Source of the DNA: an uncultured Gemmatimonadales bacterium
GTDB lineage: Bacteria > Gemmatimonadota > Gemmatimonadetes > Gemmatimonadales > GWC2-71-9
DNA length: 64,000 nt
Assembly: GCA_963821525.1 (NCBI GenBank)
Contig: CAWGED010000005.1
Coordinates: 896,001 to 960,000, forward strand
Direction: 5' to 3'
Within the stretch, counting starts at the first letter, position 1. Each line of letters starts with the position of its first letter. This document shows, in pieces, positions 33,101 to 55,540 of the stretch. The notes beneath the pieces were generated by a model. The model was not told where the DNA came from and ran no database searches. It saw only the letters and a program-made list of their open reading frames with translations. The position numbers were made by a program, and so were the translations under genes.

Positions 33101-33296
33101 GGGAGACGGGAGACGGAAGACGGGAGAGGTGAGACGGGGCGAAGCGTGACACCTCATCCCGAGGAGGAGACGAGGGACCTAACCTCCCGACTTTGGCGCC
33201 AAGGTCAGGATAGTAGGCTCCTCTCGCTCCGCTCTGGCTGCGGTAGTCCTTCTCAGCTTCTCACTTCTGTACTCCCGTCTCCCGTCTCCCATCTCC
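33101..33296. repeat. Inverted GGGAGAC heptamer arrays enclosing a nested palindrome
   Basis: gggagac-gggagac-ggaagac-gggagag (33101-33128) and ctcccgtctcccgtctcccatctcc (33272-33296). Central tcccgactttggc/gccaaggtcagga. Confidence 0.85.
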
Positions 33297-34240: not shown

Positions 34241-34353
34241 GAGTACTGAGTACTGAGTACCTAGTACCAGCCAGGTTTGATGAGCCGATATCAGTGCCCG
34301 CCATCAGATTCTACTCGACGCAGTTGTCCTCGGTACTCGGTACTCGGTACTCT
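34241..34353. repeat. Inverted GAGTAC(T/C) heptamer arrays
   Basis: gagtact-gagtact-gagtacc-tagtacc (34241-34268) and ctcggtactcggtactcggtactct (34329-34353). Confidence 0.85.
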
Positions 34354-34357
34354 ACTG

Positions 34358-36421
34358 ATGTCCCTCCGCCTCGACACCCCCGTCAAATTCCTGAAGGGCA
34401 TCGGGGAACGGCGGGCCGAGGCGTTCGCGAGGCTCGGGGTGCACACGGCGGGAGACCTGCTGTGGCACATCCCCTTCCGCTATCTCGATGCATCCACCAT
34501 CACACCGCTGGCCAAGGCCCGAGTAGGAGACGAAGTCGCCTGCATCGGGCGGGTCGTGGCCAAACGGTTGCTGCCGACCCGGCGCGGGCTCCGGATCTTC
34601 CACGCGGTCCTGAAAGACGAGAGCGGTCTGCTCGAGTGTGCCTGGCCCGGTCAGGCCTTTCTCGATCGCACTATCGAAGTCGGACAGACCCTTCTGGTCT
34701 CCGGCACGGTCCGCTTCTATCACGGACGCCAGCTCGCCCCGCGAGAGTTCGTCATCCTGGCCGATCAGGACTCGGACGGCGATGAATCGCTCGGCGGCCG
34801 GGTGCTTCCGGTCTATCCCGCCACCGAAGGGCTGAGCCACAAGACGATCCGGGGGTTGGTCAACCGGCATCTCGATGAGTTGGTCAGCCTCGCACCGGAC
34901 GTTCTTCCGGAGACGCTGCGAGGGGACGGGGTTCCGTCGCTGCCCGAGGCGCTCGAGGCGGTTCACCGCCCCGACTCTCTCGAGCACGCCGAACTCGGGC
35001 GGCGCCGTCTCGCCTTCGATGAACTGCTGGATCTGCAACTGATGCTCGCCCGGGCCCGGCTCATCGCAAAGCGAGGACGGAGCGGCGTAGCCTTTCAGAT
35101 CCGGCACGACCTCACCCGTGGTCTGGCGCAGTCGCTTCCCTGGAAGCTGACCGCCGATCAGAAGCGTGCCATCCGTGAGATCACTGCCGACATGACCTCG
35201 CCGGAACGAATGCACCGGATCCTCATGGGCGACGTGGGGACCGGGAAGACGGTCGTGGCCTTGTTTGCCATGCTGCTCGCTCTGGAGAACGGCTACCAGG
35301 CGGCTCTCATGGCCCCGACCGAGTTGCTGGCCGAACAGCATGCCGTAACCCTCACCGAGCTGCTCGCGCCTTTGCGGATTCGACCCGAGCTTCTCCTGGG
35401 TCGTCTTACCAACGCCGAGAAGGCCGATCGGCGGAGCCGGCTGTCCAACGGCAGTCTCCGGCTGGTGGTGGGCACCCATGCGCTGGTTCAGGAGAGCGTG
35501 TCCTTCCAGCGCCTGGGTCTGGTGGTGATCGACGAGCAGCACCGCTTCGGCGTCGAGCAGCGGGCGGCGCTGGTCGCAAAAGGCGCGGCACCCGATGTAC
35601 TGCTACTCACTGCGACTCCGATCCCTCGTTCGCTCGCCCTCACCCGGTTCGGAGATCTCGATCTCTCCGCCATCAAGACCCGTCCGCCAGGCCGTGGCAA
35701 GGTCAAGACCGGCGTACGCACCGCGAAACAGCGGGATCAGGCGTTCGCATTTGTGCGGGAGCAATGTCTCGCGGGACGTCAGGCCTACGTCGTGTTGCCG
35801 GTCATCGAGGAAACGGAGCGGGCCGACTTGAGGGCCGCGACCACCATGGCCGAGCTGTTGAAGCAGAAGTGGTCTGACGTGACGGTGGGACTGGTACACG
35901 GCCGGCTCAAGCCGGAAGAGCGGGACCTCGAGATGCGGCGCTTCCGCGCCGGCGAGATCCAGGTACTGGTGGCCACGACGGTCATCGAGGTCGGTATCGA
36001 CGTGCCGAACGCCACCGTGATGCTCATTGAGCACCCGGAGCGGTTCGGCCTCGCCCAACTTCACCAGCTGAGAGGGAGAGTTGGTCGCGGATCGTCCGAG
36101 AGCTTCTGCATCCTCCTCACCGACGGCTCGCCAGCACCTCGGCTCAAGGCCTTCGCCGCGACCGAAGATGGATTCAAGATCGCCGAGCTGGACCTCCAGG
36201 AGCGGAAGATGGGGGACCTGATCGGCGCTCGTCAGGCAGGGAGCTTCGACCTGAAGCTTGCGCGGTTACCGGACGACGGGGACTTGCTGGAACAGACGAT
36301 GGAAATTGCGAGGACTATTCTGGAAGGAGACCCGTTGCTGGTCCAGAAACGTCACGCCGCGTTGAAGCAGCGGGCGTTGGGGCGGTATCCGAGGGCGGTG
36401 GAGTTGTTTCGGACGGGATGA
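34358..36421 (+). CDS. recG: ATP-dependent DNA helicase RecG
   Basis: LKGIG, GDVGTGKT, APTELLAEQH, IDEQHRFGV, TATPIPR, GLAQLHQLRGRVGRG. Confidence 0.97.
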   Translation: MSLRLDTPVKFLKGIGERRAEAFARLGVHTAGDLLWHIPFRYLDASTITPLAKARVGDEVACIGRVVAKRLLPTRRGLRIFHAVLKDESGLLECAWPGQAFLDRTIEVGQTLLVSGTVRFYHGRQLAPREFVILADQDSDGDESLGGRVLPVYPATEGLSHKTIRGLVNRHLDELVSLAPDVLPETLRGDGVPSLPEALEAVHRPDSLEHAELGRRRLAFDELLDLQLMLARARLIAKRGRSGVAFQIRHDLTRGLAQSLPWKLTADQKRAIREITADMTSPERMHRILMGDVGTGKTVVALFAMLLALENGYQAALMAPTELLAEQHAVTLTELLAPLRIRPELLLGRLTNAEKADRRSRLSNGSLRLVVGTHALVQESVSFQRLGLVVIDEQHRFGVEQRAALVAKGAAPDVLLLTATPIPRSLALTRFGDLDLSAIKTRPPGRGKVKTGVRTAKQRDQAFAFVREQCLAGRQAYVVLPVIEETERADLRAATTMAELLKQKWSDVTVGLVHGRLKPEERDLEMRRFRAGEIQVLVATTVIEVGIDVPNATVMLIEHPERFGLAQLHQLRGRVGRGSSESFCILLTDGSPAPRLKAFAATEDGFKIAELDLQERKMGDLIGARQAGSFDLKLARLPDDGDLLEQTMEIARTILEGDPLLVQKRHAALKQRALGRYPRAVELFRTG

Positions 36422-41823: not shown

Positions 41824-41944
41824 GATTGCCGATTGCCGATTGTCGATTAAAAACTGCGGATAAGATTGCTGATTGCCGATTGTCGATTGACAGCGACGGT
41901 CGGTGGATCGCCACCCCAATCGGCAATCGGCAATCGTCAATTGA
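41824..41944. repeat. Inverted GATTGYC heptamer arrays
   Basis: Two forward runs (41824-41848, 41864-41891) and a reverse run caatcgg-caatcgg-caatcgt-caattga (41917-41944). Confidence 0.85.
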
Positions 41945-49837: not shown

Positions 49838-50850
49838 GTGATCAGCAATAGCCGAGTTACCACGATCGAGCGGTTCATCATCGACCAGGAAAGCAAGTAC
49901 CCCGAGGCGACGGGCGAGCTGTCGAACCTGCTCTACGACATCGCGCTGGCGGCCAAGATCATCGCCGGGGCAATCCGGCGGGCCGGGCTGGTGAACATCC
50001 TGGGCAGTGCTGGGACCACCAACATCCAGGACGAGGAACAGCAGAAGCTCGACGTCTTTGCCAATGAGACGATGACCAACTCGCTCAATCACACCGGGCG
50101 AGTCTGCGTGATGGCGTCGGAAGAGGACGAACATATCATCCCGGTCCCGGACCAGTATCCGGCTGGGAAATACGCGGTCTTGTACGATCCCCTCGATGGC
50201 TCGTCGAATATCGATGTCAACGGTGCCGTCGGCACCATCTTCAGCATCTATCGCCGGGTGACCACCGAAGGGCGGGGATCCGAAGCGGATGTGCTCCAAC
50301 CGGGCTGCAAGCAGATCTCGGCGGGCTATGTGATCTACGGATCGAGCACCATGCTGGTGTACACCACCGGTCAGGGCGTTGCGGGGTTTACTCTCGATCC
50401 TTCCATCGGCGAGTTCCTGCTCTCCCACCCTCGCATCGTCATTCCGCGCGTGGGGAAGTACTACAGCGTCAACGAGAGCAACTTCGCCCGGTGGAACAAA
50501 GGGATTCAGACTGCAGTCCGCGGCTTTCACGGCGATCGCCCCAGGACATCAAGGGCAAGAACAGCCGGTACATCGGGTCACTGGTGGCGGACTTTCACCG
50601 GAACCTGATCGCCGGCGGAGTGTTCCTGTATCCGGCGGACACCAAGAACACTCGAGGGAAGCTGCGGCTGCTCTACGAGTGCTCGCCCATGGCGTTCATC
50701 GCCGAGCAGGCCGAAGGCTCGGCCACCGATGGGGTCAACCGGATCCTCGATATCGTCCCTACCGCTCTGCATCAACGCACGCCGCTGGTGATCGGGTCAC
50801 GGGAGGATGTGGGATACGTGGCGGATACGTTGAGGAAGGTGGGGGAGTGA
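49838..50850 (+). CDS. fbp: Class 1 fructose-1,6-bisphosphatase (frameshift ~50540)
   Basis: [45 protein letters not shown]. Confidence 0.96.
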
Positions 50851-50952: not shown

Positions 50953-52487
50953 ATGCCCTCACCTCGCAAGACCATCTACAATGCCGCCGACGCCCGCCGG
51001 CGACTCCACCGCGCCCGGCACCTTCCCGTTCACCCGCGGGATCTATCCCGGCATGTACACCGAGCGGCTCTGGACCATGCGCCAGTACGCCGGGTTCGGA
51101 ACCGCCGAGGAGACCAACGCTCGGTTTCGTCATCTGCTGGCGGCGGGGCAGAGCGGATTATCTACCGCGTTCGATCTGCCGACCCAGATGGGGTACGACT
51201 CCGATCATCCGATGGCGGAGGGAGAGGTGGGGCGGGTTGGTGTCGCCATCGACACGGTGGAGGACCTGGCGACGCTGTTCCGGGAGATTCCGCTGGACAA
51301 GGTCTCCACATCGATGACCATCAATGCCACCGCGGCGATCCTGCTCGCGATGTACGTAGTGGTGGGGGAAGAGCAGGGAGTAAGCCGAGAGAAGTTGCAG
51401 GGCACGGTGCAGAACGATGTGCTCAAGGAGTACATCGCGCGCGGTACCTACATCTTCCCTGCGGAACCGTCGCTCCGGCTCGCGGTGGATCTCTTCCGCT
51501 TCGTGGCGGACGAGAAGCTCAACTTCAATCCGATCTCGATCAGCGGCTATCACATGCGGGAGGCCGGGGCGACACCGGTGCAGGAGGTGGCGTTCACGCT
51601 GGCCAATGCCATCGAGTATGTGAAGCGCGCGGTCGCGGCGGGGATTCCAGTCAATCGCTTCGGGCCTCGGCTCTCGTTTTTCTTCGCGGCCCACAATGAC
51701 TTGTTCGAAGAGGCGGCCAAGTTCCGGGCCGCCCGGCGTCTCTGGGCCAGGCTGGCGCGGGAGCGTTTCGGGGCCGACGATCAGACCTGCAGGCTCCGGT
51801 TTCACACCCAGACCGGCGGAGTGACGCTCCAGGCCCAGCAGCCGTTGAACAACGTCGTGCGGGTCACGGTGCAGGCCTTGGCCGCGGCGATGGGGGGAAC
51901 TCAGTCGCTCCACACCAATGGCTATGACGAGGCGCTGGCGCTGCCGACCGCGGAGTCGGCGACGCTGGCGCTTCGGACCCAGCAGATCATCGGCTTCGAG
52001 AGTGGGATGAACCAGGTGGTAGATCCGCTCGGTGGGAGCTACTACGTCGAGGCGCTGACCAGCCGGATCGAGCAGGAAGCCGAGACGTTAATCAAGGAAG
52101 TAGACGCGCTGGGCGGTGCCGCCGCGGCGATTCAACGCGGCTTCTTCCAGGAGGCGATCGCGAAGAGCGCCTGGGAGCTGCAGCAGAAACAGGAATCGGG
52201 GGAGGTGACGGTGGTAGGGGTTAATCGCTTCACCGACGATTCGCCCATCCCTTCGATCGAACGGCCTGACTACTCGGCCCTGGCCGAACGCCAGAAGGCG
52301 CAACTCCGTGAGGTAAAGGCGAAGCGTGCCGCTCCCGCGGTCACCAAGGCTCTCGACGCCGTCGCCCAAGCCGCAGCGCGGCTCGGCGCCCCTGATGCCT
52401 CCCATCATCGAAGCCGTCCGCGCCCGCGCCACCCTGGGCGAGATCAGCGACACTTTGCGCGGCGTTTGGGGAGTCTACAAGGGGTAA
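50953..52487 (+). CDS. Methylmalonyl-CoA mutase family, substrate-binding subunit (frameshifted at both ends)
   Basis: [56 protein letters not shown]. No B12-binding DxHxxG domain. Confidence 0.92.
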
Positions 52488-52528
52488 TGGATTGCTTGGC
52501 CATTTGTCGCTCTCTTGATCCCTAACAT

Positions 52529-53426
52529 CCAATTTGAACAGATGAAACGCAGAGGCGCAGAGGGCGCCGAGGCCTGCAGTAGTCGGCATGGGCTGAGTTC
52601 GAGCGAAAACCAATTCTAGTGTTCTCAGCGCCTCCGCGTTTGCAGTTCCATAGCGTCCCCAATTACCAAACATGAACAGCATGAAACGCAGAGGCGCAGA
52701 GAACGCGGAGGATGTGCACAATGCGATTTCAGAACAGGTAATTGGTGCCGCAATTCAGGTTCATCGTTTCCTAGGGCCAGGCTTGTTGGAATCGGCATAC
52801 GCCGCCTGCCTGGCGAGGGAATTTCACCTGCAAGGGATTCAGTTTGACCAAGAACGACCAATCCTGGTGGGTTATAAGGGAATCAAAATCGATAATGGAT
52901 ACCGGGTTGACTTCGTTGTCGAGCAACTCGTTATCCTCGAAATCAAGGCGGCCGACCGACTGCACCCGATTCACACAGCACAACTTCTTAGATATCTCCG
53001 CCTCACCGACAAGAAGCTGGGTTTGCTGATCAATTTCAACGTGCCTGTCCTTCGTGACGGCGTTCGCCGGGTGGTAAACAATTTGTAGTCTTGGGGCCTG
53101 AGTTGAGCGAAAACTACTTTAGTGTTCTCTGCGTCCTCCGCGTCTCTGCGTTTGCAGTTCTACAGCTCCCCGCATAACCAAACTTGAACAGCACGAAACG
53201 CAGCGTTTGCAGTTCTACAGCTCCCGAATGACCAAACGTGAACAGCATGAAACGCGGAGGCGCAGAGAGCGCCGAGGACGGCGGCAATCGGCATGGGCTG
53301 AGTTTGAGCGAAAACCATTTTAGTGTTCTCTGCGTCCTCCGCGCCTCTGCGTTTGCAGTTCTACAGCTCCCCGTATTACCAAACGTGAACAGCATGAAAC
53401 GCGGATGCGCAGAGAGCGCCGAGGAC
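52529..53426. mobile_element. Tandem array of ~150-bp palindromic units, one carrying a GxxExxY nuclease gene (putative selfish element)
   Basis: Units start at CCAA(A)..TGAACAG at 52529, 52666, 53178, 53232 and 53379. Arms AAACGCRGAGGCGCAGAG... and ...CTCTGCGTTT. Mobility is inferred. Confidence 0.7.
52681..53088 (+). CDS. GxxExxY protein (PD-(D/E)XK nuclease superfamily)
   Basis: VHRFLGPGLLESAY, RVDFVVEQLVILEIKA (D..ExK), AQLLRYL, GLLINFN. Alternative start at 52672. Confidence 0.93.
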   Translation: MKRRGAENAEDVHNAISEQVIGAAIQVHRFLGPGLLESAYAACLAREFHLQGIQFDQERPILVGYKGIKIDNGYRVDFVVEQLVILEIKAADRLHPIHTAQLLRYLRLTDKKLGLLINFNVPVLRDGVRRVVNNL

Positions 53427-53501
53427 TTCCTGACCTCACTTGAATCCCCTAATCAAGTCGGCTAAGTTCTTGTCCTGTTTCTCCTTAGGATAAGCCACCG
53501 A

Positions 53502-53905
53502 ATGCCGACGTACGAGTACCAATGCCCTGAAGGGCATGAGTTCGAGCTGTTCCAGAAGATGTCCGAGAAGCCGCGTGCCAAGTGCCCCGTATGCGGGAAA
53601 ATGGCCACCCGGAAGATCTCGGGCGGGGCCGGTCTCGTCTTCAAGGGCTCGGGCTTCTACATCACCGACTACGGGAAGGACGGAAAGGGACCGCGGAAGG
53701 CGGACAAGGCGGACGCGGCGGACAAGCCTGCCCCGAGCGGAAGCGAGGGGGGGCGGCGGACAAGTCGGACAGGGCGGACAAGCATGCCCCGAGCGGAAGC
53801 GAGGGGGCGGGTAAAGCGGACCAGCCTGCTCCCAAGGCCGACTCGAAGACCGACTCGACCCCGGCCAAATCCCATAAGCCCCAAAAGAAGAAAGCCGGCG
53901 AGTGA
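53502..53905 (+). CDS. FmdB family zinc-ribbon regulatory protein with repetitive tail (frameshift ~53750)
   Basis: MPTYEYQC..GHEFE...CPVCG...FKGSGFYITDY. Confidence 0.88.
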
Positions 53906-55540
53906 GCGATCTCATTCGGGAGGAGCTGCAGCGCGTCGCCGAGGTGCTGGGAGGCAACGGGGCGAGCTTCGTGCTGGAGCGGCCGCGGGACCAGGGTCAC
54001 GGCGACCTGGCGACCAATCTCGCCATGGTGCTCGCCAAGGAGCTCAAGCAGAAACCCCGCGATCTCGCCCGCCGGGTGATCGAGGAGATCAAGCTCCCCT
54101 CCTCGGTCATCTCGAAGATGGAGATCGCCGGGCCCGGCTTCATCAACTTCTGGCTGGCGGCCGACGAGCTGTCTGCGCTCCTCGCGACCATTCTCGCCCA
54201 GGGCGCGGCCTATGGTCGCAGCGAAATGGGCCGCGGCCTCCGGGTCAACGTCGAGTTCGTCTCCGCCAATCCCACCGGACCGCTCCACGTGGGGCACGGT
54301 CGCGGTGCTGCGCTGGGTGATGCGATCGCCGCCCTGCTCCAGGCGACCGGCCACGAGGTCGTGCGCGAGTTCTACATCAACGACGCCGGTACCCAGATCG
54401 ACAAGCTGGCCCAGAGCCTCTGGGCCCGGGTGCAGCAGGCGGTGGGGCGAAGCGCCGAGGTTCCCGAGGGCGGCTATCACGGCTTGTACCTGAAGGAGAC
54501 CGCGGAACAGATCCTGGCACAGGAAGGCAGAGGCTTCGCCGATCTGCCGGAGGCGGAAGGGTCTCGAGCGTTGCCGCGCGATCGCGCTCATCACTCAGCG
54601 CCAGGAACAAGACGCGCTGCTCGCCGATTTCGGGGTCCGCTTCGAGGTGATGACCTCCGAGCAGTCGATCTACGATTCCGGCAAGGCGCAGCACGCGCTC
54701 GATGTCGTCGCCAAGCGGGGACTCACCTACGAGCAGGAAGGCGCCCTCTGGATCCGAACCTCCGACTTCGGAGACGACAAGGACCGGGTGCTTCGCAAGA
54801 GCGATGGCTCCTACACCTACCTCGCCCCCGACATCGCCTATCACCTCGACAAGCTGGAGCGGGGATTCCAGCGCGCGATTGACGTCTGGGGCGCCGATCA
54901 CCACGGCTACGTGCCGCGGCTCCGCTCGCTCCTCAAGGCGATGGGGGCACCCGATGACTTCTTCGAAGTGGCGCTGGTCCAGCTGGTGAAGGTGGTCCGG
55001 GGCGGGGAAGAGGTGAAGATGTCGAAGCGCTCCGGCGAGTTCGTCACCCTGCGGGACCTGCTCGACGAAGTCGGCGTGGACGCCGCCCGTTACTTTTTCC
55101 TGATGCGACAGGGCAGCTCACCCTTCACCTTCGATGTGGAGCTGGCCACCCGGCACACCGACGAGAACCCGGTCTACTACGTCCAGATGGCGCATGCCCG
55201 GATGAGCGGCATCTTCCGGGTGGCGGAGCGGGACCCTGAGTCGGTCTCGGGAGACGTGAGCCTGGAGGCGCTCCCGGCGCCCGAGGACCTGGAGCTGCTC
55301 AAGAAACTCGCGGTCTACCCCGAAGTCGTGGCCAAGGCCGCGCGAATGCGGGAGCCGCACCGGGTCACCGATTACCTGGAAGACCTCGCTCGCCTCGCCC
55401 ACGGCTGGTACCACAAGTGCCGAGTGCTCGGCGAACCACCTGCGACCGAGGCGGCGCGTCTCGCCCTCGCCCGTGCCGCCCGCATCGTGCTGGGCAACGG
55501 CCTCTCGCTGCTCGGCATCACCGCACCGGATCGGATGTGA
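53902..55540 (+). CDS. argS: Arginine--tRNA ligase (frameshift ~54560)
   Basis: GDLATN, AGPGFIN, EFVSANPTGPLHVGHGR, WGADHHGY, KMSKRSG, YYVQMAHAR. Confidence 0.97.

Follow-up and report, generated by a model that had tools for sequence, protein, structure and literature searches.

Why does a small gene for a predicted nuclease lie in the loop of one palindrome of a tandem array, beside related palindromes that hold no gene? We met this arrangement between a methylmalonyl-CoA mutase gene and fmdB, which encodes a zinc-ribbon protein, in a stretch of 64,000 nucleotides (nt) from an uncultured Gemmatimonadales bacterium (genome G000; assembly GCA_963821525.1, contig CAWGED010000005.1, positions 896,001 to 960,000), hereafter the window. 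From the mutase stop codon to the fmdB start there are 1014 bases, about 950 of which form an insert of five related units, and the single gene in the insert encodes a protein of the GxxExxY family. In our judgment there is about an even chance that the insert is a selfish cassette, in which the GxxExxY nuclease gene is bounded by its own inverted arms, built of CGCRGAG words, and the nuclease acts at such palindromes.

In a full unit, a junction segment CCAAACNTGAACAGCATG is followed by a left arm AAACGCAGAGG-CGCAGAGAA-CGCGGAGG, a core, a complementary right arm and a junction segment GCAGTTCTACAGCTCCCC (Table 1). The arms are 27 nt long, consist of three CGCRGAG words and are 85–89% complementary between left and right. 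The segment 52300-53700 has six inverted-repeat diagonals scoring at least 15, whereas 100 dinucleotide shuffles averaged 0.04 and never exceeded 1. As a DNA hairpin, unit 4 reaches −30.0 kcal/mol (z −4.3), a value that 0/200 shuffles equalled, and unit 1 reaches −22.7 kcal/mol (z −2.7); an alternative register, comprising a right arm, the junction and the next left arm, also folds (52623-52710, −18.2 kcal/mol, z −4.25). The insert is AT-richer than the flanking housekeeping genes, with a GC content of 0.51–0.55 vs 0.63–0.69. Both this bias and the layout of units, arms, core and junction segments agree with an earlier reading of the same DNA (hereafter the original prediction). That reading had also put the whole open reading frame (ORF) between the left arm and the core, in place of fewer than 20 nt. 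This is correct for the body of the ORF, but its start codons and first ~13 codons (MNSMKRRGAENAED) lie within the junction and the left arm themselves, and at the position of the ORF body the empty units carry 20 nt, including a 9-nt match (AATCGGCAT) to the ORF.

Table 1. Positions of the insert, its units and its neighbours in the window
Feature	Position	Strand	Remarks
Methylmalonyl-CoA mutase gene, left anchor	50981..52487	+	PF01642, E 5e-199; orthologous anchor in relatives
Left edge of insert	52488..52528	.	Nothing comparable in empty junctions, nor in the inserts of G003 and G004 (junction comparison)
Unit 1, gene-less	52529..52665	+	Left arm 52545-52571, core 52590-52622, right arm 52623-52641, junction segment 52642-52665
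Unit 2, gene-bearing	52666..53177	+	Junction and start codons 52666-52683, left arm 52684-52710, core 53095-53126, right arm 53127-53153, junction segment 53154-53177
GxxExxY ORF, 138 amino acids	52672..53088	+	Inside unit 2; predicted PD-(D/E)XK nuclease fold
Unit 3, collapsed	53178..53231	+	Junction segments, arms shrunk to AAACGC-A-GCGTTT; presence varies between strains
Unit 4, gene-less	53232..53378	+	Left arm 53250-53276, 20-nt filler with ORF remnant 53277-53295, core 53296-53327, right arm 53328-53354
Unit 5, left half	53379..53426	+	Junction segment and left arm only (53397-53425)
Ancestral spacer	53439..53501	+	Equals the whole 63-nt junction of empty-site relatives; TTGAAT...GCTAAGTT promoter-like motif of fmdB
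fmdB start (zinc-ribbon protein), right anchor	53502..53700	+	PF09723, E 1e-14; anchor in relatives

The product of the ORF belongs to the GxxExxY family, matching TIGR04256 with 142.2 bits (cut-off 35; model positions 2–116 of 116) and PF13366 with an E-value of 6e-41 and 139.9 bits (cut-off 22; positions 2–117 of 117), and shows the family motif as G37-L-L-E40-S-A-Y43. Ten residues were invariant across 50 sequences (H31, G35, P36, G37, E40, Y43, D80, E90, Q104 and Y108), the stretch G35-P-G-L-L-E40 was common to fifty relatives and K92 was present in at least 90%; D80, E90 and K92 make up the D..ExK motif, which the original prediction had rightly called intact. A confident AlphaFold model (pLDDT 92.6) puts the catalytic D80 on strand E71-83 and E90-x-K92 on strand E87-92, and the protein thus has, as modelled, the catalytic D...(D/E)xK on core strands that defines the PD-(D/E)XK nuclease superfamily. 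The structural neighbours of the model were PD-(D/E)XK nucleases only, namely Cas4 SSO0001, the BpuSI nuclease domain, CinB, BglII, lambda exonuclease and Hjc. Profile matches to Cas4 were weak (Pfam E-value 0.005, below cut-off; PADLOC E-value 1e-4) and covered the catalytic core; the four-cysteine Fe-S cluster of Cas4 proper is absent, C46 being the sole conserved cysteine. A QxxxY after the ExK strand is a motif that recalls the RecB/Cas4 clade.

Other searches with the protein returned little. The PDB held no solved structure related by sequence (one chance match to a ribosomal protein, E-value 0.24), PHROGs had no family for it, PADLOC gave no defence family beyond the weak Cas4 matches, and a profile search gave no transposase family for the only gene of the insert. 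The family itself is very large, with at least 7996 PF13366 matches among 8000 scored candidates. In the accessible portion of a 2012 superfamily survey, PF13366 is described as a family of unknown function with multiple transfers (PMC3424549), and the remaining mentions of the family that turned up, one of them in PMC8934634, were incidental.

We searched 30 relatives with the DNA of the region and compared junctions where both anchors lay on one contig, a comparison that leaves out G009 and G010 (gaps of 4–8.5 kb) and G001 and G002 (anchors on different contigs). Eight relatives have an empty junction of 38–64 nt that extends scarcely beyond the promoter-like motif of fmdB (G012, G024, G022, G030, G017, G026, G028 and G020), four a non-coding junction of 122–188 nt (G023, G025, G029 and G021), and four a junction with ordinary genes or ORFs without a Pfam match, not cassettes (G013, G014, G016 and G019). 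A GxxExxY cassette occupies the junction in the remaining three: the sister species G003 and G004, and G011, from another genus. The locus, then, is not fixed in relatives, in line with the original prediction, being empty in eight and holding a different cassette in each of these three. The G003 insert has three units with CACGAAG words and a gene 49% identical to ours over its full length and 55% in the core; that of G004 consists of two units with CACGAAG words, in which the genes are decayed (protein identity 42–50%); and that of G011 has CGCAAAG words, a 58% identical gene and the opposite orientation. Identity of the flanking DNA is 87–91% to G003 and G004 (88–91% to G003 alone), and the two other GxxExxY genes of G000 are syntenic in all five genomes of the genus, with protein identities of 94–100% and 86–97%. 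Because these two genes are conserved genus-wide and the flanks are 87–91% identical, while the cassette proteins at the window junction are far less so, the window locus was replaced and did not merely diverge; the other cassettes are long-term residents. In the G011 gene (L006, C181:27003-27353), the codon that follows the GPGLLE motif is an in-frame TAG.

The array also varies between strains. In contigs from public soil and rhizosphere runs of other studies, a 1661-nt contig of X3 extends from the mutase gene into fmdB and includes unit 1, the GxxExxY gene and units 4-5, a 972-nt contig of X2 contains the mutase gene, unit 1 and most of the GxxExxY gene, and a contig of X1 confirms units 2-3-4 with one difference. 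Other strains have an extra 9-nt word (GCGTTCTCC) after 52627, in the right arm of unit 1, and the strain of the spanning contigs lacks 34 nt of core relative to the window. Contigs of X1 and X3 skip 54 nt of unit 3 (53173>53228), whereas another contig of X1 retains it, so X1 contains both forms of the array. The ORF is open in related strains, with five synonymous and three non-synonymous changes in X3. Joints such as 52711>53126, found in four runs, were rejected as excision products: their sides are 20–28 nt long with unknown letters between, and we read them as other arm pairs in metagenomes.

The link between gene and arms extends across the family. Among 80 GxxExxY loci taken from genome contigs of more than 14 phyla, archaea included, inverted repeats scoring at least 14 bracketed 53/80 genes, compared with 1/142 shifted and 0/80 shuffled controls; one arm lies just 5' of the conserved domain and the other just 3' of the gene. 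At least two CRYNRAG words, mostly 8–9 nt apart, were found in 50/53 arms vs 4/592 random segments, with a pattern that was written after the data were seen, and at 45/50 loci the purine-rich word strand is in the 5' arm, indicating a single polarity. A gene-less hairpin of the word-array class lies within 1.5 kb of the gene at 21/80 loci vs 0/300 random 3-kb windows of the same genomes. On a protein tree of few columns and weak support, letter 2 of the word changes 9 times vs 14.9 in shuffles, 0/300 of which reach 9; phylum labels do not cluster on it (31 vs 32.2), and one CATGAAG clade joins Pseudomonadota, Verrucomicrobiota and Chloroflexota. Hence most GxxExxY genes have arms of like design, as the original prediction had suggested looking for, and letter 2 tracks the protein tree. 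Since gene and arms are physically linked, this tree signal shows co-transfer, not recognition.

We found no obvious transfer vehicle among viral contigs and plasmid records: none of 46 pattern matches in viral contigs was confirmed, and the gene occurred in 8 of 72,556 plasmid records, all predicted to be non-mobilizable. No partner gene travels with the GxxExxY gene, the neighbours of which differ from locus to locus.

Within the phylum the gene is patchy, being detected in 42/121 genomes, often as fragments or with stop codons. At least 20 three-word arrays were counted in 16/42 gene carriers and in 0/79 other genomes, and at least 10 in 19/42 vs 3/79 (Mann-Whitney p = 8e-7), the counts having been transcribed by hand and the related genomes not being independent. 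The 16 array-rich genomes span 15 genera. In G095, G075 and G120, the arms at the only gene detected use the commonest array word of the genome; G086 has four gene matches and zero arrays.

The 81%-complete assembly of G000 has three GxxExxY genes only, all with word-array arms. Its two-arm loci comprise the subfamilies CGCAGAG (a; nine loci, including the window gene), CGCRGAT (b; six, including the C4 gene), CGCGGAA (c; four, including the C8 gene), CACRAAG (four) and CACAGAG (one), the last two with no gene in this assembly. Each of the three genes thus has arms of its own subfamily, which also has 3–8 gene-less copies, and the arms recur elsewhere in the genome, as the original prediction had asked. 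The dispersed copies have arms that are alike nearly letter for letter and loops that are unlike, and several are nested in one another. Four tandem gene-less units at C10:66350-67120 have arms of the CGCAGAT(R)AA subfamily that flanks the C4 gene. This gene (minus strand, C4:251116-251460) has a frame that stays open through the right arm into a D-alanine-D-alanine ligase-like gene, giving 493 amino acids, an arrangement conserved in all five genomes of the genus.

The neighbouring empty units had been taken for separately mobilized, non-autonomous copies; a better reading is that they arose from a gene-bearing unit by internal deletion and tandem duplication. Two gene-less units of G003 match the gene unit at its 5' end and again along the final ~110 nt of the ORF with its stop codon. 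Another such case is located after the G003 copy of the C8-type gene, and the empty units of the window retain the 3' core together with the 9-nt ORF match. Given these ORF remnants and the differences between strains, the local arrays are best explained by internal deletion combined with slippage or unequal exchange between arms.

Arms also behave differently from what lies between them. In G019, 16 copies with arms ~160 nt apart have arms invariant in 25 (left) and 24 (right) columns, in an alignment whose column identity, flanks included, averages 50%. At a hairpin orthologous between G000 and G002, the flank and part of the loop are common, and all the words differ, those of the left arm by G>A and those of the right arm by C>T; G003 and G004 have unrelated heptamer palindromes at this site. 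A hairpin at another orthologous site has its minimal form in G002 and G004; in G003 it is one unit whose interior is fuller, and in G000 there are two units in tandem. From these orthologous comparisons and the invariant arms of G019, we conclude that arms are kept or rewritten as units.

Two further observations concern such hairpins. At C5:993348-993866 (L112) in G000, CACGAAG-type arms with their loop are nested inside CGCAGAG arms in two tandem units; G003 has one unit of this element, and G002 and G004 have only the outer arms and the left inner array. In many of the G019 copies (L155-L170), inspection by eye shows the left arm preceded by AACTGC and the right arm followed by GCAGTT. This outer inverted pair comes back in G000 and G003 beside arms that use other words, the positions noted including window 53154-53160 and G000 C5:993320-993350; it may mark the true ends of the element or a target site.

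If the insert is a selfish cassette, its nuclease would recognize palindromes of the word-array type or cut them, perhaps when these are extruded into hairpins or cruciforms, and could be a Cas4/RecB-like enzyme that cuts hairpins or cruciforms. Repair of the break from another copy would rewrite the arms and at times bring the gene along, so that spread and homogenization would proceed by break repair or gene conversion; gene-less units would derive from internal deletion, and tandem arrays from slippage or unequal exchange between arms. We infer each of these enzymatic steps from comparisons of sequences. The alternative offered in the original prediction, that the units are hairpin substrates of the nuclease, is compatible with such a cassette.

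Several observations weigh against this reading. No cleavage, excision product or fresh insertion was seen in the sequence comparisons, and the structural matches of the protein are at fold level only (best Foldseek E-value 2.5e-3, VIA Z at most 7.3). The ends of the element are undefined, 18–45 nt past the arms also differing from empty sites; no target-site duplication was seen by eye at the edges of the insert, compared with empty junctions, or around the G019 copies, and no formal search was run. Homologous exchange of flanking genes between strains could explain the replacement at the junction with no element-driven insertion, and the conserved residence of two cassettes across the genus could mean a cellular role. 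Arms are not universal: 27/80 family loci scored below 14, and no arms were present within 400 nt at 3/8 genes checked (both G124 genes and one G117 gene). The sole gene detected in G019 has CACGGAG arms, a minority type there, most of the listed arrays being CACAGAG, and arrays occur with no detectable gene in G108 (18), G136 (14) and G014 (11). Finally, G000 has ~260 tandem-word palindromes, most of them 7-mers that use other words and have no link to a GxxExxY gene, where complement-only or mirror controls gave 22–37, and the unrelated heptamer palindromes of sister species at one orthologous site indicate that hairpin turnover can proceed without the nuclease.

The last of these points, together with the arrays in G108, G136 and G014, are what would be expected if the palindromes were independent intergenic repeats, host-made or self-evolving (palindromic microsatellites), that serve as transcript ends, stabilizers or structural sites, the gene being merely a tenant and its nuclease unrelated. 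We consider this unlikely. It also accommodates the site C5:302512, at which four sister species have four different word types, the microsatellite-like differences in word number between strains, and the nested hairpins, from which loops would seem to be landing sites in general; in Xanthomonas and Nostoc, moreover, non-coding DNA is known to be enriched in heptamer repeats, according to the accessible part of the source (PMC4692102). It does not readily account for a single word class, CRYNRAG at 8–9 nt spacing, at 50/53 arm-bearing loci over many phyla, for the same word and protein clade in three phyla, for the match of each gene to its own gene-less subfamily, or for the presence of the gene in all genomes with at least 20 arrays; and simple microsatellite dynamics leave invariant arms beside drifting interiors unexplained.

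We regard as improbable a second alternative, in which the arms pair in RNA, like the stems of intervening sequences in 23S ribosomal RNA (rRNA), and control the processing, stability or translation of a cellular repair or defence nuclease, gene-less copies being decayed or co-opted regulatory hairpins. The placing of the start codons and ~13 codons in the left arm, where the alternative hairpin buries them, fits this idea, as do the single polarity at 45/50 loci of purine-rich words ending in AG(G), which resemble ribosome-binding sites, the genus-wide conservation (86–100%) of two cassettes, and the weak likeness to Cas4. An RNA-library contig (X18; 173 nt, depth 3.4) covers 52610-52773, which is only a hint of transcription; the library may also contain DNA. 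The RNA runs X19 and X20 gave arm-sized pieces and fmdB only, the gaps in their coverage carrying no information. A cellular nuclease under RNA control sits poorly, however, with the patchy distribution and frequent broken copies, the replacement of the insert at one junction by distant alleles, the dozens of gene-less arm pairs far from any GxxExxY gene, the limitation of defence-family matches to weak Cas4 ones, and neighbours that differ at every locus with no travelling partner gene. Rfam, searched at E-values up to 1, returned microRNA-precursor families only, at 27 bits vs a gathering score of 96; membership of the units in an RNA family was rejected, these being generic long-hairpin matches far under gathering scores.

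An origin of the tandem units in faulty assembly of a metagenome bin rich in repeats, a possibility raised with the original prediction, is scarcely credible: single-base frame breaks in several housekeeping genes do show assembly indel errors, but the independent contigs described above span the array, and the same architecture is found at the same junction in G003 and G004.

These frame breaks and other features of the neighbourhood merit a brief description. The mutase gene has a 1-base frame break near 52377, where contigs from three other runs lack one base, and its true C-terminus is read in ORF 52326-52487; fmdB is broken by a single-base shift in a G run at 53748-53756, and argS (53902-55540) and a fructose-bisphosphatase-like gene (49838-50850) are each split into two ORFs by a single-base frame shift. 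These shifts are probably assembly indel errors and not real pseudogenes. After its zinc ribbon, fmdB contains a run of direct GGCGGACAAG-like repeats (53690-53800) encoding a low-complexity tail; the summed depth of 53616-53700 was very high in all metagenome runs compared, and this segment is therefore common to many organisms. Judging from its sequence, the TTGAAT...GCTAAGTT motif may act as the promoter of fmdB; a scan of 52400-53560 for promoter and terminator consensus sequences found none. Three more of the ~260 tandem-word palindromes of G000, with the words AGACGG, GAGTAC and CGATTG, lie in the window at 33102-33296, 34241-34359 and 41824-41943 (C5:929102-929296, 930241-930359 and 937824-937943).

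How does a selfish cassette of this kind compare with known systems? Its closest counterpart in layout may be REPIN/RAYT, doublets built from repetitive extragenic palindromes (REPs) with a REP-associated tyrosine transposase; as described in the accessible text of Bertels and Rainey 2011 (PMC3116915), both have short inverted repeats that form extragenic hairpins in clusters and tandem arrays, many gene-less copies and few repeat-flanked protein genes, with repeat groups each tied to their own gene. On the same partial account, the REPIN/RAYT gene encodes an HUH/Y1 transposase and the element in the window a PD-(D/E)XK nuclease (PF13366), a REP is a unique sequence whereas the arms here are tandem 7-nt words at 8–9 nt spacing, and only here does an arm encode the first codons of the gene, do arms stay invariant while interiors drift, and is no transposition intermediate seen. 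Because its gene does not encode a tyrosine transposase, the insert is not a member of REPIN/RAYT, and the likeness is one of layout only. The original prediction of an autonomous element analogous to REPIN/RAYT is accordingly borne out in part: the variable site, the matching of subfamilies and the restriction of array-rich genomes to carriers form the pattern that the analogy predicts, as do arms at other genes, but target duplication, excision product and cleavage were not seen.

Like free-standing homing endonuclease genes, the cassette has a small, intergenic, apparently selfish nuclease gene that is distributed patchily and not by phylum, with frequent decayed copies, and whose site is empty in some relatives and occupied in others; we propose that it spreads by break repair. 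Unlike them, it matched no known homing family, its presumed target is a dispersed palindromic repeat and not a unique gene site, and gene-less copies of its ends multiply. Miniature inverted-repeat transposable elements (MITEs) and palindromic mini-elements such as Correia/NEMIS, RPE and BIME have terminal inverted repeats and derivatives with internal deletions. The cassette resembles MITEs in these respects and in its dispersed intergenic copies (for example, 16 in G019), and departs from them in that no transposase was found, no target duplication was seen by eye, and interiors are far less conserved than ends, which is the opposite of a recent transposition burst. An insertion sequence or MITE was accordingly rejected, there being inverted arms, no transposase match and no direct repeat by eye, although no formal search for one was made.

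Some intervening sequences of 23S rRNA hold a small ORF, with no function assigned, in a loop closed by a long stem. The insert shares the small ORF in a stem loop; it was rejected as such a sequence, as it lies between protein-coding genes and not in an rRNA helix. A CRISPR array was likewise rejected, the units being whole palindromes with shared cores and junctions and no unique spacers; no cas gene is present among the ORFs checked near the insert (mutase, GxxExxY ORF and fmdB only). The G-quadruplex-forming heptamer repeats of Xanthomonas and Nostoc, direct arrays without a protein gene in the accessible part of their description (Rehm et al. 2015, PMC4692102), resemble the arms in having tandem units of 6–9 nt, in variable number, enriched in non-coding DNA and preferably between aligned ORFs. 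Such heptamer arrays are also abundant in the G000 genome; as far as that description goes, CRYNRAG words differ from them in that they invariably occur as paired inverted arms and have a link with a nuclease gene. In the literature, subscription journals being outside our coverage, we found no description of an association of GxxExxY, PF13366 or TIGR04256 with word-array palindromes, nor of a likely selfish nuclease-plus-palindrome cassette of this kind.

Beyond this locus, we tentatively suggest that GxxExxY proteins might drive an unrecognized, pan-prokaryotic kind of selfish DNA, in which a Cas4/RecB-like nuclease would recognize palindromes of CRYNRAG words and, by cutting, would rewrite and multiply its own arms through break-induced gene conversion. 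If true, REPIN/RAYT would have in it a first counterpart driven by a nuclease, and a large part of the unexplained intergenic hairpin repeats in many bacterial phyla and archaea would originate from it. The link between gene and arms offers an origin for this common class of intergenic palindromes, and a defined DNA partner makes the orphan GxxExxY family a testable system. Should the nuclease recognize word arrays, it would be a programmable-looking repeat reader, with a specificity that might be legible from the adjoining arms. For annotation, these cassettes account for variable inserts between conserved genes, N-terminal low-complexity protein tails and contig breaks in metagenomes.

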